From: Dudresnaya verticillata | Lineage: Eukaryota | Direction: 5' to 3' | Assembly (NCBI GenBank): GCA_977862235.1 | Contig: OZ374564.1 | Location: forward strand, 1,302,001 to 1,366,000 | DNA: 64,000 bases | In this document: piece after piece, positions 6,016 through 62,565 of the stretch | How the letters are laid out: the number at the start of each line of letters is the position of its first letter | Numbering within the stretch: position 1 is the first letter of the stretch | Position numbers and translations under genes: made by a program | The notes under the pieces: generated by a model | Seen by the model: only the letters and a program-made list of their open reading frames with translations | Told to the model about the DNA's origin: nothing | Database searches by the model: none

Positions 6016-6019
6016 ACCT

Positions 6020-25419: not shown

Positions 25420-25420
25420 C

Positions 25421-36798: not shown

Positions 36799-36948
36799 CC
36801 CACAGCGTGCGCGTTGTAACGGTCGCGACCGAGGCGTTCGCGCTTGAGGGGGGTGTAGTGCCAGGGGGTTCCCCCTTTTTTCGCTTTCAAGCGGGTTGAT
36901 ATTCCGCGTCTACCGACGGGCGACCGCCAACGGCGCGCTCAACCCACC

Positions 36949-37695: not shown

Positions 37696-37700
37696 CCACC

Positions 37701-39805: not shown

Positions 39806-40239
39806 TTGGCTAACGGACCATTCCTTCGAAACTTATGGCGGTTTGCGTGAATTTACCCAAAATATTTCCAGGTATTCTGAATTTCAATTTCCTTGCGTCG
39901 ATTTGGCCCGGGCGGCCCACTCCGCGGTCCGCACTGGGCCAAATTGGAAATTGCCGGCCCGCAGCATGCCCCTCACCGCGCGCGCTGCATGCGCGCCGCA
40001 TCGCCCATCTGGCCCGCCCCGCGCGTGCTCGGCGCCGCCTGCAGACTACCCCGTTACCAATTTTCGGCTTTCTGGTGCAACGGGTGCACTGTGCTGTGCG
40101 CGTCTGTGCACAAATCCGCACGCGACCGCATACAGACTGCCTCGTCACCCGCCCCCCCCCGCCCCGCCCCGCGACGCACAACGCCTTGGACAAAACCTGC
40201 TGTCGCAGTTGCCCACCCGCGTGCACACCGTGGATCCCG
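39806..40239 (+). repeat. Left terminal inverted repeat (outer ~115 bp missing)
   Basis: Reverse complement of 62018-62449 with about ten differences by eye. Confidence 0.92.
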
Positions 40240-40271
40240 ATTCTCAACTAACCCCTTTACTGTTCTTGCTA

Positions 40272-40351
40272 CTTACACATCTGAACCAGGGTCTTCCACC
40301 GTCCACTCCTCGAGGAGTGGACGGTGGAAGACCCTGGTTCAGATGTGTAAG
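40272..40351. repeat. Perfect 80-bp palindrome with no spacer
   Basis: CTTACACATCTGAACCAGGGTCTTCCACCGTCCACTCCTC|GAGGAGTGGACGGTGGAAGACCCTGGTTCAGATGTGTAAG. Confidence 0.97.
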
Positions 40352-41064
40352 GATCCAGCACTTCCCACCCTAAAAGAGCCATCACCGCTAGAGCCCCTCG
40401 CATCACCCCCTCTCCAACCAAGCCAGCCCTCTCAATCATGTCGCGAGTCCACCCCATCATCTGGACCCGGAGCCAGACAGTTGTGTCCAGCTCCTCCGCA
40501 GCCAGTGCGCGAGCCTCGTCCAGCCCAGCGCGCAGGGCACGGACCTCTTCAACCAGCGCCAGCGGGGCTGGGTCGGTCGGTAGCATTCTGGCTGTATATG
40601 GCCGACCTCCGGCCTCGGTCAGCTTCCTTTTGTTCAGACGCATGTCACTCCATGTTGGTAGCGGCGCTGAAAATGATCCCGATAGAGATGCAACTCTCAA
40701 GCTTTGTGTTATGAAGTTACGAAATTACCTGCAGGGCTGATGCAGTTGATGTCGTGCACGTCACGGCAACAGTAACCACCTAATTCAGGACTGCAAGTCC
40801 TACAAGGCAACCTCGCACATTGACTGAGGTCGATGTCCACTCGTTCGCGCGTTAGTTTCGACAATTCAGCATTACTAGGCGAGGCATGACTCTCGACGCT
40901 GCTTCGAACTATCGCTGCAACCGCTTTCAAGCATCAACTGAATCCTTCCTGAAGAAGCCGAAAATTTGCAGGAAGCATGACGGGGACTGTGCATGCGTTG
41001 ACAGGGTCGGACCCAGAGTAGGTTCGGCTAATGTCAGAGAAGGTCGTCCTCGCTTATTTACAGA

Positions 41065-41530
41065 ACAAAGTTGTTGGTAGTATGTCGAAGAAGGAGTCCC
41101 ACGTGGTATCAAACAACCTGCCGCTGCATCGTGCGTTCTCTGCGTTTTTGTTCGATACCAAGGGACGCATGCTTCTCCAACAACGTGGAGCGAAGAAAAT
41201 CACCTTTCTGTCGTTCTGGACGAAAACCGTATGGGCTCATCCGCTCCACACGCCTGCTGAGCTTGGTCGGGAGGACAGTGGAGATGCGCTTGCAGGGGTC
41301 ATGCGTGCTGCCATGGAAGCTGTCTCATGAGCTAGCTCGGTGTCAAAGAGGGAGAGGTCGGTATGGACGACCTGCACTACATGACTCGCATTCATTAGCG
41401 TTCTGAAAATGACGGAGGGGTGTGGGGTGAGCATAAGATTGATTACGTGTTCATGGCCGTGAAGGACGTAGCGCTATACTGCTATAGCTCCTGAACCACA
41501 TGAAGTCCGAGCAGTACGTATCTTCGTGCT
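41065..41530 (+). pseudogene. IDI1: Type I isopentenyl-diphosphate isomerase fragment
   Basis: LHRAFSAFLF..LLQQR..KITF..WT....HPL; downstream LHYMTRIH, WGEHKIDYV and EV motifs with stops and frameshifts. Confidence 0.88.
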
Positions 41531-42707
41531 TAGAATTATTAGAATTCATTGTCTCGGGTAGGTGAAGATAGATTTATGCAGTACGGGAGCGTTGGGTGCT
41601 TTGTAGTTGAAAGAGAGAGGTGGGGCGAGATGCGATGTAGGTGTGGGGCAGGACGACTTCCAGCAACATGCAGGTCTTGTGGACCGAACAAGATTACCAC
41701 CACTGAGGGCTGCCTTTACCCTGGGCTCAGCTGTCGGCCTCCAGAGCGATACACAGGCTGCCCTCCAGGCTTGACATAAATTCAACTTACCTACAGCCAA
41801 AAAAAGTTGTTTTCGCCAAGCTTGATACATCGGGACGCTCTTGTATATGCATACCGACGCCGATAAATTGCACTGGCTTGTCAGCAACGCAAGTGCAACC
41901 TAAGGAAGGATAGAAGCTAGGCTTGCTCTGCACAGCAGGACTAATCGCTTCCACGTTGTTCAACAGCTTAGAACAACGCGTTTGCCTTTACTAGTATCGT
42001 AGCAGTGGTACGTTCTCCGAGGCGCTACTGGAGATCCGCCTCATTAATAGAGCGCATCTGTGGAAATCATAATTCTTTTGTTGCAAAGTGGACGAAGGTG
42101 GGTGGCGGTGAGTGGTTTCGATGATACCAGCAGCATTGAGGACTACATGCAAAGGGGGGAGGGGCCTGATCATACATAATAGAGCCCCCGCCTGTGATAC
42201 CGCCCCAACTAGTCGGGTAGTCAGGAAGCAATCATAACAGTACGAAGATATTCATTTGAGCTGCCGTATCGGCGTATAACAAGCACTGGGGCCAGTTTTC
42301 GGGCCTGTTTTCCCGTTCCAGGAAGTCCAAACGGCTGAAAGCTTGGAACGGGGGCGATGTTGGGGTCTGAAAACCTAAGAATCTTTTGCCGCCGGTAACT
42401 ACAGCAGGTAACTTTTTCCGATCCGTAGCTGTCCAAGCAGCACCACCAAGTATCTCGCTAGAAGCGTTTAGGGGCGGAAGTTCATCGTGCGATACGATTA
42501 GGCTCCAGCACGTGCCGAGTTATTGTGCGTTTCTTTCGCAGACAACCAATCGCGAATAAGCTCTCGATGCAGCTATATCGTCAGCGCCAAGCCCCGACCA
42601 GCCCCGACCTGAATGGTCGCCATTCACCCATATCAAAGTAGTTCTAATGGTCATAAAGTCTGCTTCATGTCCATCCGTGTGTGTGTGTGTTTGCTTCATG
42701 TCCATCC

Positions 42708-42742
<35 letters not shown>

Positions 42743-43542
42743 TCACAGCTACTGAGAGCGCAAAAAAGGGGTTATCATTTGCTGAAGCCGGCATAGATGC
42801 AGAGCGATTTGCATTCTTTTTCGCTGAAGTGCTTCTCCCCTCGCTTAGCAGAGCCCCTTGTGTCAAGGATGAGGGAAGGAGGACGTTCAAACATCTGCGA
42901 AAGCTTTCTAAGATGTAAGTCGTACAATAGCCTGATGAGAACCACTGCATTTCTAATTGCTTCACAGCCATGCCTTCGACCTGATCCTTTGTTCATCACT
43001 TTATCTTTTGTAGTTCGGGAGTCTACCAAGATAAGTCACCGGTAATTCTAGAGACCACACACCATAAGCCCACTCTGAGCAAAAATATTCTTCAAAGCAT
43101 ACGTATGCTAGTCCGTACGGACTAAACATATGAAATAAAGCGTCGACGGAGAAAAAGTAGTACCACGTACGTACGTAGCGTTTTTATGGAAGAGCAGCTT
43201 GCGAACGTTTTTATCATTGCTCTTGACGCACTGCACGCCACGCGCGAGTTTGCTCAGCTGGGCGAAACGGGAAAGAGGACTGCGCTCGCTCGGAGCTGTG
43301 TGACGGTTGAGCACGGCGGGCTCTAAGGCGCAGGACACGGGTCGGTGCGTGTGTGAAGCGGATTGTCACGGAGACGGCGGAGTGGAGACTCGGCTCTCCG
43401 ACGCGTGCGTGCGCTGCGGACGGACTCTTGACGTGAATCAGCGTACCGTCCCGCCGCTCACCGCGGACATACGTCACACGCTTCTGGTTTTACCGTTGCG
43501 CCTGGTCGACAGCAACTCTATCGTCCTTGCGTTGCGCGGCCC

Positions 43543-46500
43543 TCACTCCACCAGTTTGAGGATGGCCAATTTCCCCTCTTCGCGCTGGGATACGCTGGTT
43601 GTGCGTAGCAGTACACCCAGCGTCCTCCCGTCCGCGCCCACTTGCACCGTCATGATGTCCTCCTCGAAACTGGCCATCACTTGCTCCACCCCGTCTATGA
43701 CGCGCACAAGGTCGTTCCGGCAAGCCTCGAAGCGCGCCCGACCGAGCATGGCGTCACCTGCAGCAGGCACTTCTGTTGGCGGCAAAAACTGCCGGCAAAC
43801 GTCTTCCCAGTCTTGCCGCTCCTCGTTCTCGACCTCGGGGTGAATGCACTTTGTCGCCTCGACGTCCCAGACCCAAACCACCCCGTTCTTTGACTGCGCC
43901 ACGACACGCATCCCGTCATTGCTTACCGCCACGCGCTCGATCAGATGCAAGCTCCCCTTCATGTGACGCCCTACCAGGTCCCAGTCTGAATCAACGTCCC
44001 ATACGCGGATCACACCACGTCGCGTTCCTGACACGACTCGGCACCCATCAGCACTAAATGCGACTGCCGAGACCGATCGCGTGTGTCCCAGGAGACGCTC
44101 CCCTACCGTCTGTCCCGTATCGGCGTCCCACACTTGAACTCCGCCTGAATTCTCCCCGGACACCACGCGGGTGCCGTCAGTGCTAACGCCAATGCACGAC
44201 ATCCCGCCCAAGTAACTAGTGAAAGGTCCTTCGCCACTCTGCTGCGATTCCACGTCCCATATGCGAACCGTCCCGGCCGCTGCCGTCGCCACACGAGTAC
44301 CTTCAACGTTAATAGACACGCTCTCTACCCAGCCAGCATGTCCCGTTGAAAGCACCGTCACCAGCTCTCCTGTTTCAGCATCTGTCACTTTGACGGTACG
44401 ATTGCGCGCGCCTGATGCCACTCGCGGACCGCAGGTACCGTTGCCGCTAACTGCAACTGTTGTTACGCCGTCCCTGTGCAAGGTTAGGTACTTCGCCTTC
44501 AGTTTTTCTGCTTTCGTGTCCCACGCACGTACCTCATTTCGAAGAGTGCCGGAAACCACTCGAGTGCAGTCCGGACTAACCGCGACGGCCGCCACCCAAA
44601 AGTGACCTTCTGGGGCCAGTTCCGCTGCTTGCCCTCGTTCAACATCAAAGACTTGGAGTCTGCTATCAGGCGACCGCGACAACACATACGCTCCATCGCT
44701 GTTCTTTGTGAGAGCATCCACCCAGTCGCCAACGCCCGTCAGAGGATCCCCAGTTTCTGCATCCCAAACTCGAGCAGTCCCGCCATGTGTAATCGACACC
44801 ACACGGATGCCGTCGGCCGTTGCCACGACGTTGTTCACTTCATCCCAGTGTCCAAGGAACGCATCACGTACCATTTCCTCAGACTCTGTTCTCCACATAC
44901 GTACTGACCGATCGCTAAAACCCATCACGACAATATCTCCATCTACAGATATAGCCCCAACACGTGCTTCGACTATCTCATGCTGACCTTCTCCAGCTGA
45001 ACTCTCCTCGTCGACGATCCCTCCACCTTCACCATGACGCTGTGTACTCCCAACTTCTGCCCCTAACGCTGTTTCATTTTCGAGCTGCAGCTTCACAATC
45101 TTGCTTTTCCCACTTTCATGCTTCGCGACGAAGAGGGCGCCGTCGCTGTTCGACCCACAACTTGTCACTCCTTGTCCTTCGATGAAACGAACATCATAAA
45201 CTACATATGGAACTTGAAATGTCTCCAACAGAGAGTCATGTGCTCCCTTCAAACACGATGTTACTGCCCGGATCCACGGTCTACGTGCAGACTTCTCCAC
45301 TCGATGTATGAAATCTCCTACCCAGTTTGGTTTCGATTTCGTTGCTAGCAGTCTTGCATATAACTGAAACTAACTGCCCGTTGTGTTCCCCACCCCATAT
45401 AGGAGACTCATTCGCACAATCTTGGACAAAGCCTTTAGAACATCAGCCTTCTTCGCAGACTCGTCCACAGGCGCCGGGTGGGAACCTAGGCTACTGGCAG
45501 TTTCAATCTCACGCCCATCTTGTCCCCATTTCTTCAAATAAGACTCAACATCACTCTCGAGAAGCAAAACAGTGTTCATCGCCATCATCTTGAATAGCCA
45601 TTGGGGGCTGCTAAGCACATTGTACACATCCGGGCCTCTCCCTGCAGCGTGAATAATTCTACACATGTTTCGCACGATGTAGCCGTCATCCTCGACAAAC
45701 GCCGGCCAGCACTCCCCATCATCAATACTTTCCGGTAACTCTGACCTGTACGCTTCCAGTATCTGGTCGAACCACTTCAACAATTCCCCATTTCCTTTTT
45801 CTTCGGCTCCTTTTGCTTCAGACTGTGTGAAGTCGTGTGTAAGGTCGTGAAGCCGGAGCCCAAAACACAGCTTACCTCCAACATGTCGATACTCAGCATC
45901 GGCTACCCCCACCCGTACCATTGCTTCTATCTTCTTCTTTGTCTCCACATCATCCGCAGTGCCCCAAATATGGCGCAGGGCTGGCACAGGAACCCAGTCC
46001 TGTTTCTGAATCACACACAACCGCCGATGCAATTCATGGTAGGTCGGCTGTGATCGGGCTTTCCCTCCCTCACGCGGCTTGTCCAGAATATCCAAGGAAA
46101 CAAGCAGCGCTACACCATACCCTGGATAATTGTCTTTCGTCACCTGCTCTACTAATTCATGGCGTCTGAAAGACTCAAGATATACATTCCATGCAGCCCT
46201 CTTATTGCCGCCCATCGCGTCTCTGTCCGACTTAACTCCCGTTCCACACAGACTCAAAGCAAAAGGTAAGCCGTCGCAGATCTTCAGGATTGCATTAATC
46301 GCTTCAGAACATTCAGCATCTTGCACCTCTGCTTCGACGTCAGCCTCCTCAACCCCCGCTACGCGCAGTAAAATATTCCTCGACTCTGGACCCAACGGAT
46401 CTCGCGGATTGAATGTCACCGTGTCTCCTAGACTTCGAGCCTGTCATGTACAGCATTCTCGTTATGTGTTGTGTAGCACTGCAGTAAACGTGAGTGATGC

Positions 46501-46640
46501 AAGCGCTCGAGGTCTCCTGGTCTACAAGTCAGAACGCAGATGCCCCAGGGTATTGTTGTACAATAATGGAGCTCTCCCATTCGCTGCTGATTCTGAGACT
46601 CCCACCCGGAAGTGCGGGTGGTGCAGGGATCCCGAGTCAC
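43543..46640 (-). pseudogene. NB-ARC (STAND) + WD40 protein, N-terminally degenerate and frameshifted
   Basis: ICDGLPFAL (GLPL-like) and LHDL (MHD-like) in 45370-46419; many GH...WD repeats in 43543-45300; no intact P-loop seen. Confidence 0.82.
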
Positions 46641-47233
46641 TCATCACTGTGATTCCAATTCAAGGGTATGGAACCCGGCACTCAGATGATGCTTTCGCTA
46701 TAGCTATGTATTACAATACATCGGTAATACTAGTACAAGGTCCCAATCGTGGTGAACCGTGCACGGTGCACATGGACAGCGCATAATGTCACCAGTCGTT
46801 CTGATTCCACTTCACAAGCAGAATACTTGCCACAAATCGGTGACCGACTGCCTGCAGCCCACACATGTTCCGAAAGCATACCGGGGGACTACACAATATT
46901 GTAATTAGGGGACGAAGAAATGCCTCCTTTGACTGGGTCAGACGACTAACGATAGGTAGACCGTTGCTCACTCACTGGTGATTCCGTTTCGCATATGCAC
47001 ACAGAACAGCATAGGAGGTTATCTGGCGAGGTTTCAGCACGTGACACCACTCCGGTGCCCACTGCGTTCTCTTCCCGATATTCTTGTTCCACCGCGCTGC
47101 GCTGACCGCCGCCAAAGGCCGCTTTTGACCTCCCACCCTTTCTTTTCTCACGATCGTACGACGCGTACTCAAAAGCGCTATTGACGGCACTGATCCCAGC
47201 GAGACGAGGCCCTTACTGCTATCGTGGTACAAA

Positions 47234-50200
47234 ATGCCTCGCACAAGAGAACGTCGCACTGCTTTGCGTCAAAGGCCTGTCACTGCGGACCGACATGCCG
47301 TCTCCGTGAAGGGAGGGAACAATTCCTCGGCCAAGACTATCGATAAGGCGACGGCGGAGACGGCCGCGGAAGAACCCATTCGCAAACAGGGGCGGAAGCG
47401 CGCCCGCAGTAACCAGCCCTGGCACGCAAATCATGTCAGCGTCGAAGAAAGTAGTGCTGTTGCTGAACGGAGAGGAGGTGGGTACGGCTGATCCAATGAC
47501 TCCGGCGTCTCCGGAAGAGGCAGACAGTACAGGTTCATTCAAAGTTAAGATGCATGGAACGTGGTTAAGAGAGGTGCAGCGGAAGAAGGAGACATGGATA
47601 GTCATCTATAATCTCCGTATTCGGAATGGACATGGGGACAAGAGGTACATGTATAAGTATCCCGGTATAAAGTCTCCCCCCACCACTCTAGCTGGTCTAA
47701 ATGTGGGTATTCATGTATGGGACAGGTAGCAAGTCCGCACTGTGAAGCCGCAACCTACAAGCGGTGCTGGAGAACCCGGCGTGGCGACCGGGGAAGCTTG
47801 CCCTCGGATAGAAATGGAGCAACCGGGTGAGAGGCACACTGTTCGTGCCCGGACGTCAACTAGGCGGTCAGGCCGTAGGGGGGTCGGGGACTTGCTCATA
47901 AGCGGACGGTGACGAAAAAAATCACCCGTACCGGTCAGTCTGATCCCAGCGCTCAGCCACACCAAGAAGGTAATGACCGCACTACCCGCCCGTATGTGCC
48001 CGCGGCCGTACCAATTAGAGGGCAAAGAAAACACGGAAGCTGGGTTATCAAAACTGGAAAGTAATGACGCGGCGCCGCGTGGGAGCGCTCCAAAACCAGC
48101 CGAGGCTGAACGGGAGAAAGGAGATTCCGGGAACGGCGCACAAGAAGACAATACTCCCGTCGACACTACAGCAGAAGAATGTGCGGGAGGTCGTGATCAC
48201 TAGTCTGAAGAAGAGCATCCTGACGTCGAGACTGCAGACGATGGGGAGGATGCTGATTCCGACACGCCGGAATGGCACCCCTCCGAAGGGGAGGAGATAA
48301 CACTAGAAGGGCGTGGAGACGGCCAGGCTACTGCTAGGACGAGCCGGAAGAGGAATTATAGACATGATGCTCGTCCGAAAGGAACCCCATCGGGGCATTT
48401 GATGGCTGCGAAGAGGAGAAAGGTAGTGGAGGTGATGGAGATGCAGGATATCTCAAACATTTTCTGCTGCCAAACGAAACAATGCTTCGGAACCATCGAG
48501 TCAGTCTACATCAGGACTGAGTCACGCAAAATGATGGACAAGAATCGCGCGGAAAGGAAGCGATACCTCACGGGACTACTGGAACCCAACTCCAACATGT
48601 ACTTCTTCAGCGGCCGGCCGGTTTGTTACTCATTTCTGGACAAGGCTTTCGGTTTCTCTAGAGACCTGCAGTCGGCAGTGAAAGGGACAAACAAGAGCCG
48701 CGAAAGGAAAGGGAGGGGGCTGATAGTTGGTGGTACTTCTACGGAACAGATGGAGGTGATAACTTCGTTCTTGGAGCGCCTCGCAGAAGTCTCTGTTGAT
48801 TCGAAACCAGACAAGGCTGAAATCCACCTCCCCTTCTATGAGAAGCTCGCAGTCTATAACACGTTTGTGACTGAGCACCGCACTCTGTACCCTAACAGAG
48901 CAACACCATCACAGAGCTACTTTTATAGTATCTGGCTCCGCAGCTGTCCGCACATTAAGGTCAGGCGAACTCACCGGTTTTCAAAATGCTCCGAGTGCGA
49001 GGAGATCAAAGATCTTCTCGCAAAAGCGGCAACGGATCTAGCGGGAACCGAAGCGCTTCGCGAGCGGCGGGCAAGGCACGTGAGAATGGTCATGCAGGAG
49101 CGAACAGAATATCGCAAGAAGTGTGAGATGGCTTCGATGTATCCGCAGAACTATTGCTCACTCATCATCGACGGTGCTGACCAGTCCGCATTTGGACTGC
49201 CACACTTCCACATCAAGGTGAAGGACACACGCGGACACGGAATGAAGGCCAAAGTAATCGGCGTTCTAGAGCATGGCCAAGTCCCACATCTAAACCTTTT
49301 CACGATGACTGCAGAGTTCGAAACAGGCGCAAACCATGTCATCGAAGCTTTGCATCGCGTATTGATGGCACGCAGAGAGAGGATGCCACTGAAGGGTACG
49401 TTGTTCCTCCAGGTCGACAACTGTACTAGGGAGAATAAGAACAGGTTTATGTTCGGCTACTTGGAGTATCTCGTTGCTATGGGTGTATTTCCGGAAGTGC
49501 ATGCGTCGTTTCTCCCCATCGGTCACACGCATGCCGATATCGATCAAGTTTTCAGCTGCACTTCGAAGAGATTACGCGTTCGAGACGCCATTATCATGGA
49601 CGACCTCATCCACGAACTACGGCAATCATACACTCCTCAACCGCGTGTCACGGAGATGTTGCAGATTATTAATTTCTCCGGGTTGTGCAAAGAGACCAGA
49701 TGCCTCGGGCGTACCGAGCCCATTTCAGAATATCGGTACTTTAGGTTCAGTGCGGAAGGAGCTAAAGACACAGACGCCGGTACGTTCAAGACTCTCTGCG
49801 AAGTGAAGAGGGGCTGCAAAGACTCTTGGAAACCGTTACATACGCGAGATGGCCAGGGGGATTTTTGTTATTTCCCCCCAACCTGCACCGGACTCCACCG
49901 ACTCCCTGTCGAGCACCGCCAGATGAACACGAAGTAACCAAGCGTCTACGATCCGCCGAGACCAGAATCAGCAATCACAGTAAGCTACAGAAGCTGTTGG
50001 CACTTTGTGATAGAGTTTACGAGGACCGTGAAGACCCATTCCACTGGGCATTGGCGGATGTGTTTGAGTTGGAAGGGGCTTACAAACCGGATGGGAGCGG
50101 CCCTAGCGCACCCTCGGAATCGGGGTCAGACGCTGAGAATGTAGTGGAACAGGACCTCACTTACACAAAGAACAGCTTTGTAGCCGTACTAGGCGACGAC

Positions 50201-50565
50201 TGTACCGAAGGATGCCCGTTCTGGCTTGGGCAGGTGATGAATTGGGAGACGGATGGGGGGGCAAGGTTACCAATTTGCAAGTAGAGTGGTACCAGAGAAG
50301 GAGTACTCGAGGGAATACTTTCACCGGGCGTTATCAGAAGGCGAGAATAACCGATGCAAATGGACATGTCAAACCGTGGAGCGATACGGTCCCGGGGAAG
50401 TCGGTTTTAGTGGAGTTCGCGCGTTTAACCAACTCTGGAATACCCGTCAGGGTGCAGCGAAAGATCAGGGAAGCCCTAGAGATGCGAAAGAGAGGAGACG
50501 ATCCGGAAATTAGTACTTCGGTAGAGGCGGGGGGACCAGGAGCAAATGGCATGGAAAGCAAATAG
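47234..50565 (+). pseudogene. Putative DDE/D-type transposase (DUF7869-like), disrupted
   Basis: 47433, 47973 and 48399 share a frame, broken by stops at ~47727, ~47910 and ~48201. Motifs FSKCSECE, SLIIDGADQ, LQVDNCTRENKN, FLPIGHTHADIDQ; frameshifts near 49860 and 50255. Confidence 0.82.
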
Positions 50566-53500
50566 CTTGGGGTGAGAGGGAGGCGAAGCAGGAATAAAGT
50601 TGTGTCGCTAGTGGCAAAATGGGGTCAAGATTCTGGGCGAGAATTGGAAAAGGGTTAGAGTGTATGCATGTAATGCCACGGAACAGAGTGTGCAGGCTAG
50701 CCTCATGACGCAGCTGCGTCATGAGGCAGCATCTTTGCTGGGTAAACCGGATTGCTTGTACAATCACAGTCGTGTTGTAAGCAACCTTAATGCCTGCAGC
50801 ACGCCAAATAAGTGAGAAAAAAAGAACCACTGTTCTCTCTTATGCACTGATACAGAATGCAATTTCGGCTTTCTATCAACCACACGGGTTGTGATTAACG
50901 TGTCCGACCTGCCAAATCGTACCTTGCACACTTTGGGTGCGATCACACCGCGGCACCCGCGGGTGCCCCCAAGTGAAGGGATGGTTCTACCCAATACCTC
51001 AAGATCTGGCGGCGTGGAGGGTCTCAGGGGCTCTGGGAACCGCGCTCCCGCCATGGTTGTTGCTCGTCCGCAGGTGCAGAATCCGACACCAATGTTAGCA
51101 GGAGACGGGACGGGCTACATGACTTATGAGCGTGTCCGCGTGATAGTTCAGATGCTTTGTGATCTCGGGTCCTGTTCTGTCCTTTTGTCTGGGGATGAAC
51201 TAAGGCTTGCAGTCGAAGCAGGCACGGACATGACCGAAACTGTTTTATATGCCAATGGGAAGACCTTGCAGGGGCTCGCGTTTGCGGTACATTTGCTGGT
51301 TTTAGGTCAACATTGACTCAGAGTTTGATCTTGAGCACATTGCTCTGGTGGAGAAGAAGTCAAGGACAATCGCGAGTGTTCTCATTCGTATTAATCCGCA
51401 TGCAGATTGATAGCATGTGCACATTGACGCTCAGGTCCATCCATTCATCACTACTGGGCTGGCGAGCAGCACGTTTGGTGTCCGCAATTCACATCTGCAA
51501 CGATTTTTGAACCTTATCGAAGAGGAGACTTGCTGCGCTTGATCGGAGTGCATTTATATCTAGGCATTCCGGACGTATGATGTACCCTGGAAGCCGCCGG
51601 TCTCTTGTAAAGGTATGAAGCTATACCATTACCTAATTTAAAAGTAACCTTGTTTTGGTTTACCAGGACCGCGACAAGCTCAATCTTGCTGTCTGTCGGT
51701 AGGCATTAAAGACAGATCCTCCTAATACAACTAGCATGCCAACCACAGAAAAGTAAACAAAGTCAGACGGTAGGACCTCTAAGGCCCCAACAGAGTGCTC
51801 CACAGAGTAGACAACATCAATCCCTACGGCAGCAACCTGATCAAGTTGCTGCCGTCGGGAGTCGATTGTGACTTTCACTGCCATACAGTGCTGCGACCGC
51901 TACCTGTCTCAGATCTGCAACACGATTGCCTCCGGACATGAATCTTGTCCAAGGGGACGAAAGTTCTAGCAGCGGTGTATACGAAAATGACCGTTCCATT
52001 TAGTCCACAATATTGCGACGGGCAGGGCTTCCAGCGTCCACGAACAGTTTGGAAACAAGAGCAATCTGCCCAGTGTCTAACCGCATGAGGATAGGTTGCT
52101 CTGTGAACCCATGTTTCTTCAGGGTTACATTCAGACCATCCTCTCGAGTGCCAATAAGAGAGCTGCAATTCATTGCACGTAGCATCCTGAGGGGTGTTTC
52201 CGATCCCGTTCGAAGCCTCCTCTGGTCGTTACCGTTCGAAAGAGACGTTGACAACATGCACACAGGCAGCTGGCCACAAACGCCTGTACCGATACCAAAA
52301 ATGTTTTCAGATAAAGGCCCAACAGCTGAGCAAACCATGCCAAGGACCATATCGCGTATAGCAGGCATATTCTTGAGGGGTTCGTACAAGTCGATTACGT
52401 TGATTTCCTGCTGCAGCAGAAGAGTGTTCCAGGAGCTGTAGACAAACACATTACAGCTCTTCACTACGAAAACAGGACCTACGGCATTATTGTGCATAGC
52501 AATGTCCAGAACTGAGCCTTTCCGACATTCAATAGCATTGCGTGTACCAGCATGTTTTCTTTGTCCTCGAGGACAGATCTAAAACCACCAAACGCACATC
52601 TACGTCATCGTACTTGAGCCATAGTTCACATCCCATTGTCACACGCACCGGAGGATCATACAATTGCCTCCCTGCAGTGTATCAGCGGCGACTTCGGAAA
52701 CCACAATTTGTTAGGGTAATGACCGGTGCTACGTCTCGCTCCTTGCAAGGAAGCCGTGCACCTTGTGGCCGCTAGCCCCGTATGACAGCCAGCCGCGGTC
52801 GACCTGCCCATTCGGAACGACGTCACATCCCTGCAATGCGATGCCCCTTTCGAAACCCTCTCCATCCACCCGCACGACGTAAGCACAAACACTCGTGCCC
52901 TTCTGCCTGCGGATCAATGGTAGCTTGTTCAGCCTGGAATTCCGACAAGAACTTCCCAAATATGGCAGTGCCAGTTCCGAAGCTTACTGCCTTCACAAAG
53001 CTACCGGTCTCTCCATACCGGCACACGACGACAACAAGCTCCCGATGGATAGAGGCGAGAGCACAGAGTCTCTCTCCGACATGATTCTTCCACAGGAGTT
53101 CCCCTCCTCCCCGCGTGTTGTGCCCGTAAAGAGACCCAAGCGTGGACAATCCGACAAACAGCGACTTACCTGGGACCTCTTAGAAGGCGCCGTCAAAGAG
53201 ATGCACCCGCACTTCCTCCCGTGCCCACACATCAGCGTCACCACCATCTACCCACAAGCGACCGCCTGGGGCCGATCTTAAGACTGTCGTGGCAAGCCGC
53301 CAGGTGAGTACGCGGTTGCCGGTTTCCAGCTCTGCTTGCAAAACGCCTATACTATCACTAGTCCAGTTCACGTTGTTGTACGTTACAGCCAGCCCCGTCC
53401 ATGCGTGCACAAGAACGTTGGGATCATCTTGGGTGCATGGCCGCACAACGAATTGGACATCATCTGAGGAGACATTGCATCCTCGGCGCGAGCACGCGCG

Positions 53501-54059
53501 CGCGTCTACGACATACTTCACAACGCACGAACAAGACTGCGAGGTTCATTGCGCGGTTGCCAACCTAAACAGCCCCATGCACGGTTGCAAACTAGGCATG
53601 CTTCGTCTTGACGAGAATTGTTACGCGAGACGAGCAGGACCCGCGGGGGAGGCGTCGGAGTCTGTGGCGTCTCGAGTGCAGACAGACGTAATGCAGACGC
53701 AGTCTGGGTGGATGTGCTCGCAGTTGACAGCACGACGGATAGGGACGCGGGATGCGCAGGCTACTGCGGTGGCGCATACGTCAGCAAACACATCACAGTG
53801 CGCGACGGGGGCACTTCCGCGAGCGCTTCGCAGTGCGGAGCATTTCCGCAGACGCGGGCTGGGTGAATGGGCTCGCAGTTGACAGCAGGATGGATAGGGA
53901 CCGCTGGAGGTACCGTTACGCGACACAGTGTGTCGCCTCGAGCTTGAAAAGAGAGGAGGTGGTGATGGTAGGAGACGGCGGTGACCACGAGGACGGTGCA
54001 TGCGGTGAGGTTGCGGTGCGTGGAGACATGCTCCGCAGCAGGCGGGTGACCAGCAACCG

Positions 54060-54362
54060 GATAGCTAATTCAGTGAGACTTCCGCCGGAGCTATCGGCGC
54101 ATATGGATTTTTTTATAGCTCCCTGTCGCCGACATATTCGAAAAGCTATTTCTTAGGTTTCCCATTTCGGCGACTATGGGAGCTATGTAGCTAACGGAAT
54201 GCCGCGAGTGTAAATATCTATTTTCTTAGGTATTTTGATTTCGGGAAACACGGGAGCTATATAGCTCCCGCGGAGGAGGAAATCAAAAAGCTAAGAAAAT
54301 AGATATTAGATTTCTCCGGCGCCATTAGCTATTGGCTGATATTCATATTCGTTTATAGCTTT
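54060..54362. promoter_or_regulatory. AGCT-rich non-coding island with two imperfect hairpins
   Basis: 11 AGCT in ~300 bp; hairpins 54115-54186 and 54213-54307 (centre CGGGAGCTATATAGCTCCCG). Function unknown. Confidence 0.6.
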
Positions 54363-55374
54363 TCACTTTGGTCCTCCTGCGTTTGCTACTTTTCCCGAGA
54401 CGCCCAGCCGCACCGCTCCGAGCCCGACATCATCTGAAAACGCACTGCCACTCAAGAAAACGCACACCACACAACACCAGCGCCCTTGACAAGGGCAGCA
54501 CACGACTGGAACCCTTTTCACAGCGTAGGTCGAGCCCTCGCCCCCGCACCGTCCCCACTGCTTCCGCCCTTCGCATCCGGCGTCGTGCTCGGTTTAGCGC
54601 TCACTGCAGATGATGGCTGCGTGGGCGGCGACTTTGTTCCGCTTGGAGGGTCCGTCGGCGTCGGTGCTTTTGATGTTTGTCGTGTGTAGCCGCCAGGGAT
54701 TTTCGGCCGTGCGCGGCCGTGCGCAGCCATAGCCGAAAGAGACGATGGCAATCTGCATAGGACGCTTGTCAGCTGCATACACTACGAGCTGTGATAGCCC
54801 AACGCCTGGATATGAGGGAGGCCCCGCAGCCCTCCGCATGGAACGATACGAGATGGGAGCGCATAAATCCATGGCGGGCTGGCCACCGACGATGCGGGTC
54901 TGGGCGGCGCCCGGGGGGCGACGTCTGGCAGAAAGACGGGGCAGTCTGCATAGTTGCGCGCAAGCATGTGTTCTTTGCGCGTGCCGCGAAGGGAGAGACA
55001 AGCGTTGCTGCTGTGATGGAAAGCATGCGCTTGCTCAAGAAAACAACTGGCATCGAAAACTTTGAGAAGGCGACCAGTGGGCATGATGCTGAAAGTAGAG
55101 GAAAGCGAGAGTTGCTACTGCGAATGGTTGCAGACGATGTTTTACGCGTTGTTGATGAGGTGAAAGACTTGCAGAAGGTAGCTTCATAGATGATGAGAAT
55201 CACCCAATGCACACGGAGGGCATGCAGCCGTTTCATGTTTCACGGCGTTTGGTCGCGACGAGCGTGCATGGATGCCATAGTTCCTTCCAGCTGGAAATGT
55301 GCAGTGGACCGTCCGCCGCCCTCGACTGGCAGAATGTACATCCGGTATAGCCCAAAAATAGATGGAGCAGACTT

Positions 55375-58305
55375 TCATGGCTCTCTATCACAACCCTCCA
55401 TCATGTGAAGATCCCATGCGAAGAATGCGTTTAAGTCTCGCAGCAGTGCTGGCGGTTCCTCCGGACCCTTAAAAGTGTACTTATACGGCCTCTCCGCGAA
55501 CTCATCGCGAACTTTGAAGGAAAATACAGCCACGAGATGCTCTCCCTCCTTGCCGAGCTCCCGCAACCCGTGCTGGTGTATTTCTGTCTTCAGTCCGTGG
55601 GCGTCGTTACCCGGTTGCAATACTGCCTTCCCAACCTTATCTGGACCACACAGCAGCCAAACTGCGTCACCACCTTTGAGTTGCGGTCGATCGCATGACA
55701 GCGGTTTCTCCCTAGGCTTTCCTGTACGTTTCCCAGACTGTTGCTTACCTGGGGACATCATTAGAGTCTGTGATTCCCTTTCAGACTGATCAGTACGTAC
55801 CCTCTTCGTGTCCGGCTGTTTGTCTATCTGTTTTGCCGAACGCTTCTGTGCTTGGACCCCTGCATCTTGAGAAGACCCGTTCTGCTTCTCCTCTGCCATG
55901 CGCTGCAGGCGTGCACGAGCCAGTCTGTATGTTTCCGGGTTTCTTTCGACGAGGTAACACTCTCTGTCTGTCCGAAGGCAGGCAATGCCTGTAGTCATTG
56001 TCCCCGCATGAGAGTCTAGGACCGAGCCGCCTTCAGGGCAGAAGGTTATGATGATCTCAGTAAGTGCATCAGGATTTTTCTCCTCCGTCAGAACTAGTGC
56101 CCTGCTAGTCCCTGGCTTCATGAGCTTATCTCTGGGTACGGGAACAGAGGTCATCACAGCAAACTTTCGTCGCTCCTTACACGAGATGAAGTGGTACGGG
56201 CTGGAGAGGTCTGGAGAGAAAGAGTTCTTGGATGTACCCTTGCGCCTTCCGAAGGCTGCTGCCTCAGCCCCATTCTGCAGTCCCTTCTTGCGACTTATCT
56301 GGACAGTAGTTGTGTCTTTGCAGAGTAAGAAAGGGTACTGCGGACTATCGAAATTGTTGTCGGTAAGTGCCTTTTGAAACAACGGGAATTTCAAGAAGCT
56401 GCAGAACAGAAACACCCAACCACCCTCCTTCACAACACGTCCACAAAACTCGCAAAGGCGCTTGATGTCTTCTTCACTGAAATGGTTTGCGTATGCAGTT
56501 CCAGCATTTGACATTCCCTTCAGGGTACCATACGGAGGGTCAGCAAGCACGAGGTCAAAGAGAGGACTGCATTCATTCCTGATTGATTGGTCATATTCCT
56601 CCCACTTCATCTGATATGTTCGTATCCTGCATTTGGAAAGCGGGTCCTTCTCCTCCACATCAGAACCGGTATCCAGTCCCTTCGACTTGCGTGTTGAAGA
56701 AACAGAACGACTACCCGGTCCAATACACTCGTTCGGGATGTCATTGTTACCAGCTAATGCGCCTGTGTCGTTGTCGTCTGTAGGATCCAGGACCGATTGC
56801 GTATTCTGCCTCTGCGTGTCAGTTACAGTATCCTTAACGGCTTCCGACTGCTTTTGGCCACCAAGGGCCCCCTTAGAGTCTTTTTCTTTCCCCCCTTGAG
56901 GTTTTCCATCAACTTCAGAGCTCGTCTTATCAATCTCAGAAGCTGAAACTATTGGCTTCTCAGTTTCTCCTATGTCTGGAGATGTATCTTTCCCAGAATC
57001 AGTTTCTGCTTGGAACTGGTGCTTGAATTTCTTTTCCTTACCTGGAGCTTGTTGCGGGCATTCCCTTCGATAAGCGGCTATCAAGGGTTTGAGCACATCG
57101 TGGTCATTTCCGAAGTTTGCACGCACCTCGTGGTCCAGCTTCGTTGAGTGAAGGAGGTTCTGGCGAATGACGTTCATACCTTCAGGCCAACTCTGGCTCT
57201 CGATAAGGCGTTCGAATTTCCGTGCTTCCTTCATTGCTGCTTTCGCCCTTCCAAATTGTTCCAGAGTCTGAAAGCTGGTGACTGACCGGAAACTCTGAAG
57301 TCGATGTACTTCGCGTAGTCGGTACGAAGTTGAAATCTGTATTTCTACGCCATCCTCCAGTTTGTTCCCATTCATGAAGGCGATTGCAGACTTCAGTGAT
57401 GAAATGTGGATGAACTTTCTGTAGACTCGGCAGTCAACCTTCCTCATTGCTCCGTCCTTGTCGAGTGTTGTCCCTTCCTTGTCTCCCGTCATCTTTGCAG
57501 CTAGATCCGGTCTCTCGTCATTTGTAATTTGTCCAATTGCGTGAATTACTCTCGTATCCAACCGCATAACTGTCTGAGCAGTCTGTTTAATGGTGTTGTT
57601 CCGATATAACTTCGAACCGTCATACGCCTCCACAATTTTTGGGGCATTTGGTCGTTTCCCAGTCTTGGCCTGCAACCTCTCCGCCTCCTCCCGCAGACCG
57701 CGGACCAGGTCAAAAAATGTAGTCTCGATAAAGTATCCCTGGTCGTGTTTCTCATTCTGATGTCGTGCCAGCTGCCGGAGCTCATGGACGTTTTGCCCAC
57801 TCTTCAAAATCGTTACAGGCCATGCGAAAGACTGCCAGACTGTTGGGAACTCCTCCATTAACTCCAAAATAACGCAATGTCTATGCAAGCCGTCAACAAT
57901 GCCGTACCATTTGGAGCGATTGTTTGCCTTCTCCAAAGCCTCCTCCTCCGTGTACTCCTTCCCTTCCTCTTTCATATTCTTGAAATACGCAACGACGTGA
58001 CCCCGCAGAGACCCTGTCATTTCGATGACAATTGGAGAGTCAGACCCGGCAACGTACCCAATAGTCCCTTCACCGCCTTTCTTCTCTGATGAGTGCAGAT
58101 GAACGCGAGCTTTGAGGCGTTCCACTCCGGAGCGCACCACGGGTCTTATTGCTGTTAGCGGGAAGCACGCCCTGGGGTCAATTCTCATATTCACGGAACC
58201 CTCCATAACGTCAGAAAACAATGCCCTCCTCATGCTTGCAGAAGAGCAATTTTGGTCCGCTTCAGATTGTGTAACAGCACCCTTTCCTGAACGTTTCTTG
58301 CCCAT
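55375..58305 (-). CDS. ParB/Srx-like domain fused to a beta-class DNA amino-methyltransferase (probably N6-adenine) and a C-terminal transposase-shared domain
   Basis: Intact ORF (open to 58410; first ATG at 58305). YGIVDGLHRH; DLVLADPPYG (motif IV) precedes EEKNPDAL and GGSVLDSHAGTMTTGIAC..RECYLVE (motif I), the beta order. Confidence 0.88.
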   Translation of the reverse strand: MGKKRSGKGAVTQSEADQNCSSASMRRALFSDVMEGSVNMRIDPRACFPLTAIRPVVRSGVERLKARVHLHSSEKKGGEGTIGYVAGSDSPIVIEMTGSLRGHVVAYFKNMKEEGKEYTEEEALEKANNRSKWYGIVDGLHRHCVILELMEEFPTVWQSFAWPVTILKSGQNVHELRQLARHQNEKHDQGYFIETTFFDLVRGLREEAERLQAKTGKRPNAPKIVEAYDGSKLYRNNTIKQTAQTVMRLDTRVIHAIGQITNDERPDLAAKMTGDKEGTTLDKDGAMRKVDCRVYRKFIHISSLKSAIAFMNGNKLEDGVEIQISTSYRLREVHRLQSFRSVTSFQTLEQFGRAKAAMKEARKFERLIESQSWPEGMNVIRQNLLHSTKLDHEVRANFGNDHDVLKPLIAAYRRECPQQAPGKEKKFKHQFQAETDSGKDTSPDIGETEKPIVSASEIDKTSSEVDGKPQGGKEKDSKGALGGQKQSEAVKDTVTDTQRQNTQSVLDPTDDNDTGALAGNNDIPNECIGPGSRSVSSTRKSKGLDTGSDVEEKDPLSKCRIRTYQMKWEEYDQSIRNECSPLFDLVLADPPYGTLKGMSNAGTAYANHFSEEDIKRLCEFCGRVVKEGGWVFLFCSFLKFPLFQKALTDNNFDSPQYPFLLCKDTTTVQISRKKGLQNGAEAAAFGRRKGTSKNSFSPDLSSPYHFISCKERRKFAVMTSVPVPRDKLMKPGTSRALVLTEEKNPDALTEIIITFCPEGGSVLDSHAGTMTTGIACLRTDRECYLVERNPETYRLARARLQRMAEEKQNGSSQDAGVQAQKRSAKQIDKQPDTKRVRTDQSERESQTLMMSPGKQQSGKRTGKPREKPLSCDRPQLKGGDAVWLLCGPDKVGKAVLQPGNDAHGLKTEIHQHGLRELGKEGEHLVAVFSFKVRDEFAERPYKYTFKGPEEPPALLRDLNAFFAWDLHMMEGCDREP

Positions 58306-60053
58306 CCAGCCAAAAATGTAATTCAGCACTTTTGAACAAACGGTCGCCGTACGTCTTTCCAACTGGTTGCCGAAGTTGTTTCCAACTGGTTGTGTTAAGC
58401 TGATGAGCACGGGATAAGCGTTGCGGTTTCCACGAAGAGCACTTCGTGTTTACAACAATATGTCCGTAGTCAGGTCAGTGGTCACTGCATTGAAAGACAA
58501 TATATATCATGCCGGTTTCCAGCTTTAACCTGGAAACGAAGTTTGTCCGCATGACTAACAGCCTCACGTACGGTTTTAACTTTGCCGGAAAGATAGTTTG
58601 AGCCCTGTACCACTGGTGGTGCCCTGATACATTCCGCGAGATTACATGAAGCTACAAATCACTGCAGGGTTCTATTGGTCGTCGGTAAATATATCGACGT
58701 ATTGTGCCGTAGGGGTGTTCGCCCTAAGTTCGTACTTTCTCAGAAAATCTTTGGAATTCAGTTCTAACCATCCAACCGTACAGTGATTCCGATTCACAGC
58801 TGCCCTACTAGGGTATCTAAACGATGCTCAAGGCGGGTAAGAAATGGGCATACGAAATAGTTCCACAACGTGGAGGGGAAATTGGAAGTTCGTGTGCCTG
58901 CGTAGGCACACTCCCTTGGACTGGGGGTGATGTGGACGATTCGCAAACGTACAGTCATTCCGATTGTACCAACATGAAGGTGTTCCTCAGAAACGATAGG
59001 AATAACCTCGGATTTTCGAATCGGCAAGAGGTTACTGTCCGCCCACACAGAGTCGTTTAACATTGACATTTCCTGAAACCTGCGCCTCCACCCTGCAGAT
59101 ATGGTCATCATAAGACCACTGCAGCACCGAAACAAACTGATGATCACAATCTGCCATCGGATGCCACGACAAACGTAAGTATGCGTGTTACCCAATGATG
59201 CAAGTAATATCAAGGTCAGGGAAATGATTAATACCATACGTGAGACCATAATACAGCCTGTACCAGTGTGTCCAAGTGATCCCAGTAAATACGTTCCAGA
59301 ATTGTGCACAGGTCAGCATGCCCTCGTTCTAGCAATACAGAAAAGGCCTATTCTGCGGAGGTTTACACAGTCTGATCTGCGGTTCCACCTAATATCTGGG
59401 CGGTGTATGTGAACTATCCAGCAAGTTGAGGCTGCATTTTTGCAGGGTCCTCATACTGCTGCCGGTATAAGTGCTTCGGTACAGTACGGTCATTCTGATT
59501 ACCGGAATTTGAACGTGTCCAATCGAAGATGTATCCCTATTTGTATGCAGAGAATGCCTAAGCCTCGTACACAGCCAAAACCATTAGCTACAAGTGTTAC
59601 TTTCAGTTTAAAAGCGCGCAATCGTTGCATTTCACAGACCTCCTCGACGGTACTGAGGAACAGAAATACGGCTGTACACACAGAGAAGAGGATTTCTTGC
59701 CGAAGTGTAGTCATTCCTATTACTATCGACATTCTCATTGACCTCCCGGTGTTGCCGGACGACATACAGTCAGGTTTCTGCGCATTTCATGGCCTCATGC
59801 GCTGTGAATTGAGGCGCCGATTGGCAGAGCAGCAGCGCCGCCTTAACGGTGACTCTTTGCAATTTTCGGAGCGCATAATGCGATCCTTGGAGGTGAAGGA
59901 TGAAGAAAGAGTCATGGAACAGAACCGTGCTCGGGAGTTTGAGGTCGTTATGGGTCAATACGATCATGACCAGAACATGCTCACAGTGGTATACCGTGGG
60001 GGAATGAAGAAGCTTGATTAGGTATCGGGGGATGCTTTCTCCGGATCCGAAGC

Positions 60054-61247
60054 TCATGAAATCGATGCCGTCTTGGTCGAGGCTATTCGCCTGGCAAGCG
60101 AGCCAGTACGGGAGATGGAGCGAATGTGCCGCCTTCTCCTGACTTGGCATTTTGCCAAAACTAACGCAGAAGGGACTGTGGAGGTAAAGGAGGCAAGGGT
60201 GGCCCGTGCGGAGCATGAAGTGCGCGTCATGTATAAGAAAGCTTCGTCGTGCAAGTACTTGGAGACGCGCGTCGGTCTTGGCTACGTGTGCTTATGGCCG
60301 TACCTTTCGTCGTCGGTAATGTTAGAAACGAAAAGACGTCGACGGTTGTATTCTTGACGAGCGACGTAATACGAATTACGCTCCTGGCGGCTTTTGAATT
60401 TGCCATGTCCCCGCGAGAGTACTTCCAGCACAATAGCTGTGTCGGGATTTGACATCAGCTTCTTTTCCTCTCTCTGCTGAATATCAACTAGGAAGGCCTT
60501 GAAACCTCCAACTCGTTCCGTTTGTCCGTAGTTCTTTGCATTTGCCTGTCCATGAACGCGTTCCATAAAGGTAGGAAAAACAGAACGGTCGAATAGTCTG
60601 ATCCCCAGTGCCTCAAGGCCGGTGAACCGTTTGCCTTCGGAGATGCAGTTGTCAATTAATGCGAGTAAGTTGGACTCACCAATGCGGCGGACCATATCTT
60701 TGCCAGTTTCCTCTGGTCTGCGCAGGGCATTGAAATCCAGACACGACAGATCGTGGCTCTTCCCAAGCAGTTCATCACTGACTTCTCGTGCAGGCTCCCT
60801 AGGTACGAAGTCAGACATCTTCCCCTTACGTACGAGGATGTGCGTTTGGACTCCCACAGGGGGTAGTACATCAGCGGGGGATTTCTGCATCAGGACCTTG
60901 GATCGCTATTGTTCCTCTGGGCTATATACCGTGTACTTTTTGTACCTAAATACAAGATTGGATTCATCATGCCTGCCACGTCGAATGTTCAGACAGGCGA
61001 AGTTTAACCCACTATCCTCTCGAAACCGGGACCAGCAAATTGATTCCTTCTTCGCCACGTATTCGGGGCAGTTAATGCTGCACATGTTGATATCGACGCT
61101 TGTTTCAATACATGTGCGAGCCCGAGCCCTGTATTGTGGAAGGGGAGTATGCGCCGGCAAAATAGAGTTATCAATAGTGGTATCAGAACGACCTTTCTGG
61201 GTTCTCGTCTTCATTTCAGCAACCTCGGCTGATGGTATCCCTCCCAA
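60054..61247 (-). pseudogene. Unknown reading frame interrupted by single stops
   Basis: ORFs 60906-61247, 60282-60890 and 60054-60254 are in one frame; no family recognised. Confidence 0.35.
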
Positions 61248-62017
61248 CTGTATTCAGACCCGTTCAGGCATTACGAAACGAGCTGGGCACAATTATGCTT
61301 TAAGACCCACACTGAGACGCATGGCACAGGCAGTAAACAACCGAGGTGCATTGGCAATTGCCGCATGTATTATATCCCTTTCATGAAGAGGCTATATACG
61401 CCTTGCAGGCAGCACCATACCGGGACCAGGAACCCGCAATGGCAGCTGACGAGTCAATGTGAAGTGGGTCAACAAATGTCGCCAACAGCGGAAACATGTC
61501 CCTTTCATGAGAACGTCCTGCTCATTTAACACCGTAGATTGTCAGTGCTTCAGTTATTGAGTACACTGAATGTATATTAACCCTGACGCGTCTGGGGAGC
61601 AGGGTCGTGGGAGTTTGGACGCTATTCTCAATCGCAATGGTGGTGGACTGGAAGCGATCCCCCTGAAGGTTGAATGAGCTTACCAAACGCCGCATTTGTT
61701 TTCCCCAATGGAGCTTGCGAAGTTGCATCAATGGATGGGGCTACGGACATGGTTGGAACGGGGAACCTTTGGGGTGTCGACAACGCAATCGGTCGCGCGC
61801 GTGGTTAACCGGGAAACAGCTGCAGGCTTATACATTTTATTATCATTACTTAACGAACTACGTAGTGTTGGGTGCGTGTCATGGAATGGCCATACTTGTG
61901 TCTGCGAGTTGTCATGACATCGGCATGTGGCGTCCCATCGTAGAGAAATACGGGCGGGCGGGTCGTGCAGCGCGGTCGGGGAGCGACGGGCAGGGCGCGC
62001 TGACGAGGTGACGGCAG

Positions 62018-62564
62018 CGGGATCCACGGTGTGCACGCGGGTGGGCAACCGCGACAGAAGGTTTTGTCCAAGGAGTTGTGCGTCGCGGGGCGGGGCGGGG
62101 GGGCGGGTGACGAGGCAGTCTGTATGCGGTCGCGTGCGGATTTGTGCACAGACGCGCACAGCACAGTGCACCCGTTGCACCAGAAAGCCGAAAACTGGTG
62201 ACGGGGTAGTCTGCAGGCGGCGCCGAGCACGCGCGGGGCGGGCCAGATGGGCGATGCGGCGCGCATGCAGCGCGCGCGGCGAGGGGCATGCTGCGGGCCG
62301 GCAATTTCCAATTTGGCCCAGTGCGGACCGCGGAGTGGGCCGCCCGGGCCAAATCGACGCAAGGAAATTGAAATTGAGAATACCTGGAAATATTTTGGGT
62401 AAATTCACGCAAACCGCCATAACTTTCGAAGGAATGGTCCGTTAGCCAATCGGATTTGACCACCGTACTCAGCGGACGCTCCCCTTTCCAACGATACCAG
62501 AAAATAGCTATTCAACTCCAGTCTGTTTAGAAAGTCGTATTCTGAAATCGCTCAAATGCGTGTT
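62018..62564 (-). repeat. Right terminal inverted repeat including the putative true end (..AAATGCGTGTT)
   Basis: Matches the left repeat up to 62449; the extra ~115 bp resembles 4790-4909; Gypsy pol resumes at ~62566. Confidence 0.85.
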
Positions 62565-62565
62565 A

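Follow-up and report, generated by a model that had tools for sequence, protein, structure and literature searches.

What is the 22.8-kb segment at positions 39806-62564 of a 64-kb stretch of Dudresnaya verticillata contig OZ374564.1, and what does the DNA methyltransferase gene inside it do for its carrier? The element was examined in this one stretch, called here the window, and all coordinates are window positions. The segment is bounded by long terminal inverted repeats (TIRs), lies between two parts of a Gypsy retrotransposon, and bears a transposase of the Pfam family DUF7869 together with a gene on the opposite strand for a ParB-like/methyltransferase protein. We consider it likely that this is a decayed, non-autonomous copy of a giant cut-and-paste transposon of the Sola1 type, of a design already described, in which the ParB-like/methyltransferase gene has stayed open. 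We give about even odds that the accessory protein has been conserved for methylating DNA and not just for binding it.

The ends of the element and its two genes

Comparison of the window with itself revealed an inverted repeat (39806-40239 vs. 62018-62449) that is 97.7% identical over 434 columns, its two arms differing by one indel and eight substitutions in 432 aligned bases (1.85% divergence). The outer 115 bp of the right arm (62450-62564) have no counterpart in the left one. Read along the minus strand, Gypsy pol (64000 to 62565) comes first, followed by the element, the Gypsy 3′ region (39807 to 39306) and a long terminal repeat (LTR; 39301 to 38465). When compared to the plus-strand Gypsy copy at 24583-36853, which served as a reference, the flanking pol ends at reference position 30224 and the match restarts at 36351, so that the left junction lacks both the outer 115 bp of the TIR and a Gypsy segment of about 6.1 kb (reference ~30225-36350). 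Two nucleotides, TT, are common to the TIR and the Gypsy sequence at this junction, and a microhomology-joined deletion after insertion would be the simplest reading of it.

At the right end, the Gs just outside 62564 correspond to the C-run plus T of the reference Gypsy, with one base fewer. Because they match the Gypsy's own sequence, the terminus is placed at 62564, and the element most likely has AACAC...GTGTT ends. CCC...GGG termini, with a CCCC start at 62569, were considered and dropped, as the reference Gypsy already carries the C-run and the T there. A second DUF7869 element, whose right part opens the window, provided an internal control. Its transposase is 46% identical to that of the main element, and its downstream end aligns with the right end of the main element over about 250 bp with a score of 101, while 500 shuffles gave 12 ± 11 (best 53.5). 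Both ends read AACAC inward and are identical at 19 of the 26 terminal bases, and within the window the terminal motif was found at 62564 and 4909 only. The part of this second, Sola1-like element inside the window gave no methyltransferase match; it has a frameshift near 1440. The initial annotation had described near-identical inverted repeats of about 430 bp lying 22 kb apart, Gypsy flanks in the same orientation and order, and a right end at 62564. All three were reproduced: both flanks lie on the minus strand in the correct order, and the second element agrees with the proposed end from AACAC inward.

The open reading frame (ORF) 48204-49937 matches DUF7869 in Pfam with an E-value of 2e-46, in agreement with the DUF7869-like transposase initially proposed. 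Homologs align from 47448 to about 50484, spread over three frames, with in-frame stops at 47727, 47910 and 48201 and shifts of frame at about 49870 and 50257; position 47234 offers a possible start in a different frame. Judged by its reading frames, the transposase copy is a broken pseudogene, and this copy of the element is decayed and non-autonomous. We aligned 108 transposases, comprising 106 of the 120 listed matches (172 were found) and two window ORFs, and numbered the residues after the homolog P0012. Acidic residues are conserved at D406 (100%), D488 (99%) and D528/D530 (100%), and all of them are present in the window copy. Beyond the second D, 5 of the 108 proteins have a CxxC, and H(3-4)H occurs somewhere in 39 of them at no conserved position. 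The structure model of P0012 (predicted local distance difference test, pLDDT, 82) gave IstA, terminase nucleases, Argonaute PIWI, Mos1 and intasomes as its best Foldseek matches, the RNase H-fold being matched weakly (E at least 0.008). The same model matched BAH domains at a probability of 0.98-1.00, and on this modelled structure the transposase likely carries a C-terminal BAH domain.

The Atlas search with the transposase returned eukaryotic DUF7869 clusters. The viral contigs searched gave one distant relative; a fragment of a DUF7869-like transposase (L029:5108-6001) stands on a contig filed as giant-virus DNA. Prokaryote genome contigs gave five distant transposases without a methyltransferase and without a clear TIR pair. 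These DUF7869-like transposases belong to five bacterial metagenome-assembled genomes (L030-L034), where four of the five sit on contigs shorter than 5 kb, and they are possibly eukaryotic contamination.

The partner gene is tail to tail with the transposase. Its ORF (55375-58449) matches N6_N4_Mtase (PF01555) with an E-value of 8e-11, and the encoded protein of 977 aa is open throughout and keeps its DPPY motif; the unbroken beta-class methyltransferase frame of the initial annotation is confirmed. The protein aligns end to end with seven homologs of 868-1010 aa, and a profile search collected 263 representatives at E <= 1e-30. Motif IV (DPPY) precedes motif I, as in the permuted Rossmann fold. 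The structure model is weak overall (pLDDT 51), and its catalytic domain matches CcrM, M1.HpyAVI and M.BceJIV at E ~1e-10. We therefore have before us a predicted beta-class N6A/N4C DNA methyltransferase, for which N6 of adenine is the predicted target and N4 of cytosine a possible one. At the N-terminus, the protein bears a DGxHR-type motif (GIVDGLHR) and gave weak matches to DndB (best E 5e-4, 3 of 23 members), DGQHR (E 0.087), the phrog_1033 ParB family (E 2e-4, 1 of 23 members) and phage ParB structures (E 4e-4 to 1e-3). The concordance of these weak ParB-superfamily matches and the DGxHR motif lend weak support to the ParB fusion initially proposed; two further tests, weak or blank in outcome, are given below.

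No SET domain was detected in the window methyltransferase, nor in the 63 homologs scanned. A metagenome scan with the methyltransferase alignment found at least 28 loci; those listed are all distant (22-44% identity) and matched in the methyltransferase domain only; the N-terminal profile matched none of the listed loci. No methyltransferase relative was found in the viral contigs. The open methyltransferase frame beside a broken transposase hints at selection; we do not claim this, for the WD40 cargo likewise has only one stop in 2.9 kb.

The C-terminal ~100 residues of the methyltransferase and the N-terminal ~100 of the window transposase are homologous. This domain was found at the N-terminus of 8 of the 120 listed transposases and in 16 of the 52 methyltransferases of at least 780 aa. 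It is unnamed in Pfam and gave no Atlas match; a suspected likeness to En/Spm Transposase_23/DUF8039 was likewise confirmed by neither.

Do the two genes travel together elsewhere? We took 17 methyltransferase clusters (7 direct matches and 10 picked representatives) and compared their contigs with those of the 120 listed transposase matches and the members of 14 of their clusters, setting aside 6 clusters on shorter contigs. Eleven clusters had a contig of 5.5 kb or more; in 8 of them, the contig equals that of a DUF7869 transposase in length and source, while randomly shifted lengths (20,000 repetitions) gave a mean of 0.065 and a maximum of 2. Across nine pairs (eight plus the window), transposase and methyltransferase distances are correlated (Mantel rho 0.63, p 0.009); two sister pairs recur in both trees, which place the window element differently. 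In these nine pairs, the ~100-aa domain is carried by the methyltransferase only in five, by the transposase only in one, by both in one (the window) and by neither in two. The homologs of the two genes thus appear to be linked and to have co-diverged elsewhere, as far as contig sizes and protein distances can tell. The linkage of the gene pair, along with the terminus common to the second DUF7869 element, supports the initial proposal that a single cut-and-paste element brings its own gene for DNA modification.

Proposed mechanism and competing explanations

We propose the following sequence of events. The transposase of an active relative would have excised the element by its TIRs and inserted it in the pol gene of a Gypsy, where a 4-bp duplication probably arose; a later microhomology-joined deletion would have taken the outer left TIR with the ~6.1 kb of Gypsy, thereby immobilising the copy. 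The BAH domain may recognise histone marks or nucleosomes in the vicinity of the element or of the target, and the ParB-like domain would bind the array at 54061-54360 and the related motif in the TIR. The methyltransferase would write N6-methyladenine (possibly N4-methylcytosine) on the element, and the purpose of such a mark may be to keep the element transcribed against host silencing or to gate the access of the transposase to the ends.

The array contains 11 AGCT sites, while the next densest 300 bp have 6 and the window as a whole has 252. A 14-nt motif is found there in two inverted copies; one more copy lies in the outer right TIR, and the window has no other even with two mismatches allowed. 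Its pattern was taken from its own sites, so that the chance figure is no independent test. The array region may be a true binding array or the leftover of a nested end.

A broader conjecture, to which we give less than an even chance, is that DUF7869/Sola1 is an old two-gene system, co-inherited down to 28-38% identity, with a mobile ~100-aa domain that is found C-terminally in the methyltransferase, N-terminally in the transposase or in both places. As targeting partner of the transposase, the accessory protein would bind a parS-like array and the TIR motif and write the adenine mark of the element, and many sublineages would keep the binding only.

Several results weigh against our reading of the locus. 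No target-site duplication (TSD) is readable, because the outer part of the left TIR and ~6.1 kb of Gypsy are deleted. No second copy of this family was seen in the one stretch analysed. The two Gypsy flanks diverge unequally from the reference, by 72 of 1427 positions in pol (5.05%) and 10 of 502 in the 3′ region (1.99%; Fisher p 0.003), which makes their origin from a single Gypsy copy likely rather than proven. The P0012 model had no transposase match at E <= 0.001 in Foldseek. The assignment to Sola1 is made on the DDD triad and the termini, the element being set beside Sola by description and not by a transposase tree. In the linkage test, contigs were compared by size and source, not by DNA, no TIRs were seen around the homologs, and chance matches do occur: the size match between P0176 and P0042 (4334 bp, short contigs) is physically impossible. 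The N-terminus of the accessory protein had no sequence match in the PDB, and the profile-profile test for ParB, built on six sequences of which one is probably not ParB, was weak (probability 8.8%). Finally, motifs were counted in the window protein, its 7 matches and 149 of the 150 listed representatives. The S-adenosylmethionine-binding motif I of the window protein, DSHAGT, is atypical and found in 1 of the 95 aligned proteins, and [DN]PP[YFW] is intact in 36 of the 90 proteins spanning motif IV and lost in the other 54. Because of these two facts, catalysis may not be the conserved role of the family.

The latter counts also argue for an alternative that is possible but less likely than not: in the same element, the ParB-methyltransferase would be mainly a DNA-binding accessory that gathers the ends or recruits the transposase, methylation being dispensable. 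Spm TnpA is reportedly a DNA-binding accessory of a similar role. Many of the 54 proteins that lost motif IV still have long ORFs, and the ~100-aa domain common to the methyltransferase and the transposase N-terminus, as well as the atypical motif I, would fit such a function. However, the window protein and its closest homologs retain DPPY, and some of the degenerate homologs may be pseudogenes or mis-called fragments.

An unlikely explanation is that of a rearranged composite, where ectopic recombination or an aberrant transposition event placed a TIR end with the interior beside a different Gypsy copy, and IDI, WD40, EMC1 and the unassigned ORFs are partly local host DNA or nested pieces instead of cargo fixed in the family. 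It would account for the truncated left end and for the unequal flanks, and the homologous gene pairs fit on contigs of 6-13 kb, so that relatives can be more compact. Nevertheless, the order and orientation of the flanks fit one Gypsy copy, pol and LTR (36 of 836 positions) do not differ in their divergence from the reference (p 0.48), and both TIRs face inward at a low divergence. Moreover, giant Ectocarpus families carry fixed nested insertions and extra genes, and their transposases are often pseudogenised (PMC12477816).

An assembly artefact, or two independent short elements facing each other by chance, is scarcely credible: the repeats differ, and so are not a collapsed duplicate, neither TIR copy shows the terminal motif at its inner edge, which speaks against independent elements of ~550 bp (the terminal motif occurs twice in the window, once per element), the transposase of the second element is also followed by this end, and other contigs appear to carry the gene pair again.

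Cargo, palindromes and neighbouring sequence

Apart from its two main genes, the element contains several ORFs and palindromes (Table 1), including a perfect 28-bp palindrome at 50700-50727. The cargo (IDI, WD40, EMC1) is fragmentary. The IDI fragment of the initial annotation is confirmed by its match to solved IDI, and from the NB-ARC-WD40 fragment the WD40 part holds, while NB-ARC was detected by neither Pfam nor PDB in ORF 45370-46443. The NB-ARC-like label of this ORF is based on its GLPxAL and LHDL motifs. The EMC1 fragment and the array were absent from the initial annotation. At 59413-60905, protein-like ORFs overlap on both strands and have no Pfam match.

Table 1. Positions of the element, its parts and its Gypsy flanks in the window
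Feature	Positions	Strand	Remarks
Second DUF7869 element, right part	1..4909	+	Transposase ~887-3302; homologous end 4909; internal control for terminus
Host Gypsy 3′ region and LTR, left flank	38465..39807	-	39306-39807 matches reference 36351-36853; LTR 38465-39301
Left TIR, truncated	39806..40239		Without outer 115 bp; TT 39806-39807 common to Gypsy flank
Perfect 80-bp palindrome	40272..40351		Just inside left TIR
IDI (isopentenyl-diphosphate isomerase) fragment, putatively captured, truncated	41025..41330	+	E 1e-15 vs. solved IDI; NUDIX E 0.002
WD40-repeat ORF, 608 aa, putative captured host gene fragment	43543..45369	-	Pfam
ORF in frame with WD40 ORF across one stop	45370..46443	-	STAND/NB-ARC-like by short motifs only
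DUF7869 (Sola1-like, DDD) transposase pseudogene, likely C-terminal BAH domain	47442..50565	+	3 stops, at least 2 frameshifts
Unnamed ~100-aa domain, transposase N-terminus	47442..47744	+	Homologous to methyltransferase C-terminus
EMC1 C-terminal fragment, putatively captured	52000..52578	-	PF07774 E 1e-5, under curated cut-off
Array of AGCT-centred inverted motifs, candidate protein-binding array	54061..54360		20-bp perfect palindrome 54251-54270
142-aa ORF	54761..55189	+	No homolog of similar length found
ParB-like N-terminus, beta-class N6/N4 DNA methyltransferase (DPPY), unnamed C-terminal domain; open, 977 aa	55375..58308	-	Tail to tail with transposase, opposite strand
Short ORFs, both strands	58794..61386		No Pfam match
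Right TIR, full length	62018..62564		At least 547 bp, ends ...GTGTT
Host Gypsy pol, right flank	62565..64000	-	62566-64000 matches plus-strand reference copy 28784-30224

Outside the element, the Gypsy at 24583-36853 bears a chromodomain, and its 3′ region contains long ORFs in antisense (33726-35129, 35182-36909); its sequence past the purine tract does not match its own 5′ LTR. A third, older piece (85%) of the same 3′ region lies on the minus strand at 37692-38464 and, with the plus-strand Gypsy copy, brackets 36853-37700, whose two ends start alike. A 174-bp inverted repeat of 92% identity (11264-11437 / 22149-22322, 10.7 kb apart) encloses a kinase ORF, a triple repeat of ~860 bp and reverse-transcriptase fragments. 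In the region 5341-10535, direct repeats of 670 bp lie 4.5 kb apart, accompanied by a partial copy in inverted orientation (6273-6394) and, by eye, a tyrosine-recombinase-like remnant at ~8950-9870; this may be a DIRS/Ngaro-type element.

Relation to known transposons

The comparisons that follow extend to the accessible parts of the sources cited. Bostrychia and other red algae have giant Plavaka (EnSpm) elements with PAG1-3, in which PAG2 is a PF01555 methylase and PAG3 is ParB-like; both occur beside inverted-repeat arrays, and self-binding and self-modification have been proposed (bioRxiv 10.1101/2025.02.11.637652). The element described here shares the PF01555 methylase, the ParB-like domain and an inverted-repeat array, and the C-run at its junction at first suggested CCC termini. 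Nevertheless, its membership in the EnSpm/Plavaka (CMCT) group is most improbable: conservation of C(2)C and H(3-4)H defines CMCT (PMC12730594), whereas the 108 DUF7869 transposases conserve neither CxxC nor H(3-4)H after the second D and so fall outside this definition; no Plavaka or Transposase_21 Pfam match was found, and the termini are neither CA..TG nor TGT..ACA. Unlike in the red-algal elements, the ParB-like domain and the methylase are fused in one protein beside a DDD transposase, and unlike PAG2, the PF01555 protein lacks a SET domain (none in the 63 homologs scanned), with no 2-oxoglutarate-oxygenase domain seen.

A better fit is the Sola superfamily, known for a DDD transposase, a 4-bp TSD, TIRs of 11-1124 bp and some members above 15 kb (PMC10741241, PMC12973397 Table S2). 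The DUF7869 element has the conserved DDD triad, a TIR of at least 547 bp within that range, a size above 15 kb and an AAC... terminus, which the second window element shares; a Sola1-annotated plant cluster has AACAC...GTGTT TIRs with a 4-bp TSD (PMC12973397 Table S2). In rows 3204-3205 of that table, the TIR and representative-sequence columns seem to be swapped between two Sola rows. In contrast to Sola as generally described, the element has a methyltransferase and a likely BAH domain, which these two papers, as far as accessible, do not list as general features.

The closest likeness is to Sola1-1_Ec32 of Ectocarpus, which is 21,549 bp long, has AACCG-CGGTT termini, a 282-bp TIR and a 4-bp TSD, and encodes a 1104-aa protein, ParB-like plus N4/N6 methyltransferase, opposite the transposase, for which self-binding and self-modification were proposed (PMC12477816). 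The initial view of a poorly described family has therefore to be abandoned, as the architecture matches this published element. Both have a similar size (22.8 vs. 21.5 kb), a long TIR, termini starting with AAC (AACAC vs. AACCG) and the ParB-like/methyltransferase gene (977 vs. 1104 aa) on the strand opposite the transposase; this likeness is one of description (architecture and termini), not of compared protein sequences. The differences are the longer TIR, the other host and the IDI, WD40 and EMC1 cargo, as well as the shared ~100-aa domain and the BAH domain, which the accessible part of the paper does not mention for Sola1-1_Ec32.

ParB-linked adenine methylases of eukaryotes have been described, the accessible text including no element of the present type (PMC4738411). 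As in VANDAL/VANC of Arabidopsis and the TET/JBP transposons of fungi, a transposon-encoded protein is proposed or shown to change the element's own epigenetic marks; however, those proteins remove or oxidise cytosine methylation, whereas the protein described here is predicted to write a methyl mark on an amino group. In the literature searched, neither the shared domain nor the frequent catalytic loss was encountered, and no paper of it contains the term DUF7869; this search overlooked the Ectocarpus paper, so that the shared domain may exist in print or in supplements.

The idea of self-marking transposons was put forward for brown and red algae in 2025; the accessible parts of those reports include no test. 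Since the locus offers an intron-free, open and expressible gene of 977 aa, a candidate array and linked homologs, self-methylation becomes directly testable, and the shared domain and the frequent catalytic loss sharpen the question of whether the protein marks DNA or binds it. The locus also ties Pfam DUF7869 to Sola1-type elements. In other words, the Dudresnaya element is a further case of a recently described design, to which it adds evidence of co-inheritance, a domain shared by the two proteins, a likely BAH domain and the frequent loss of catalytic motifs.

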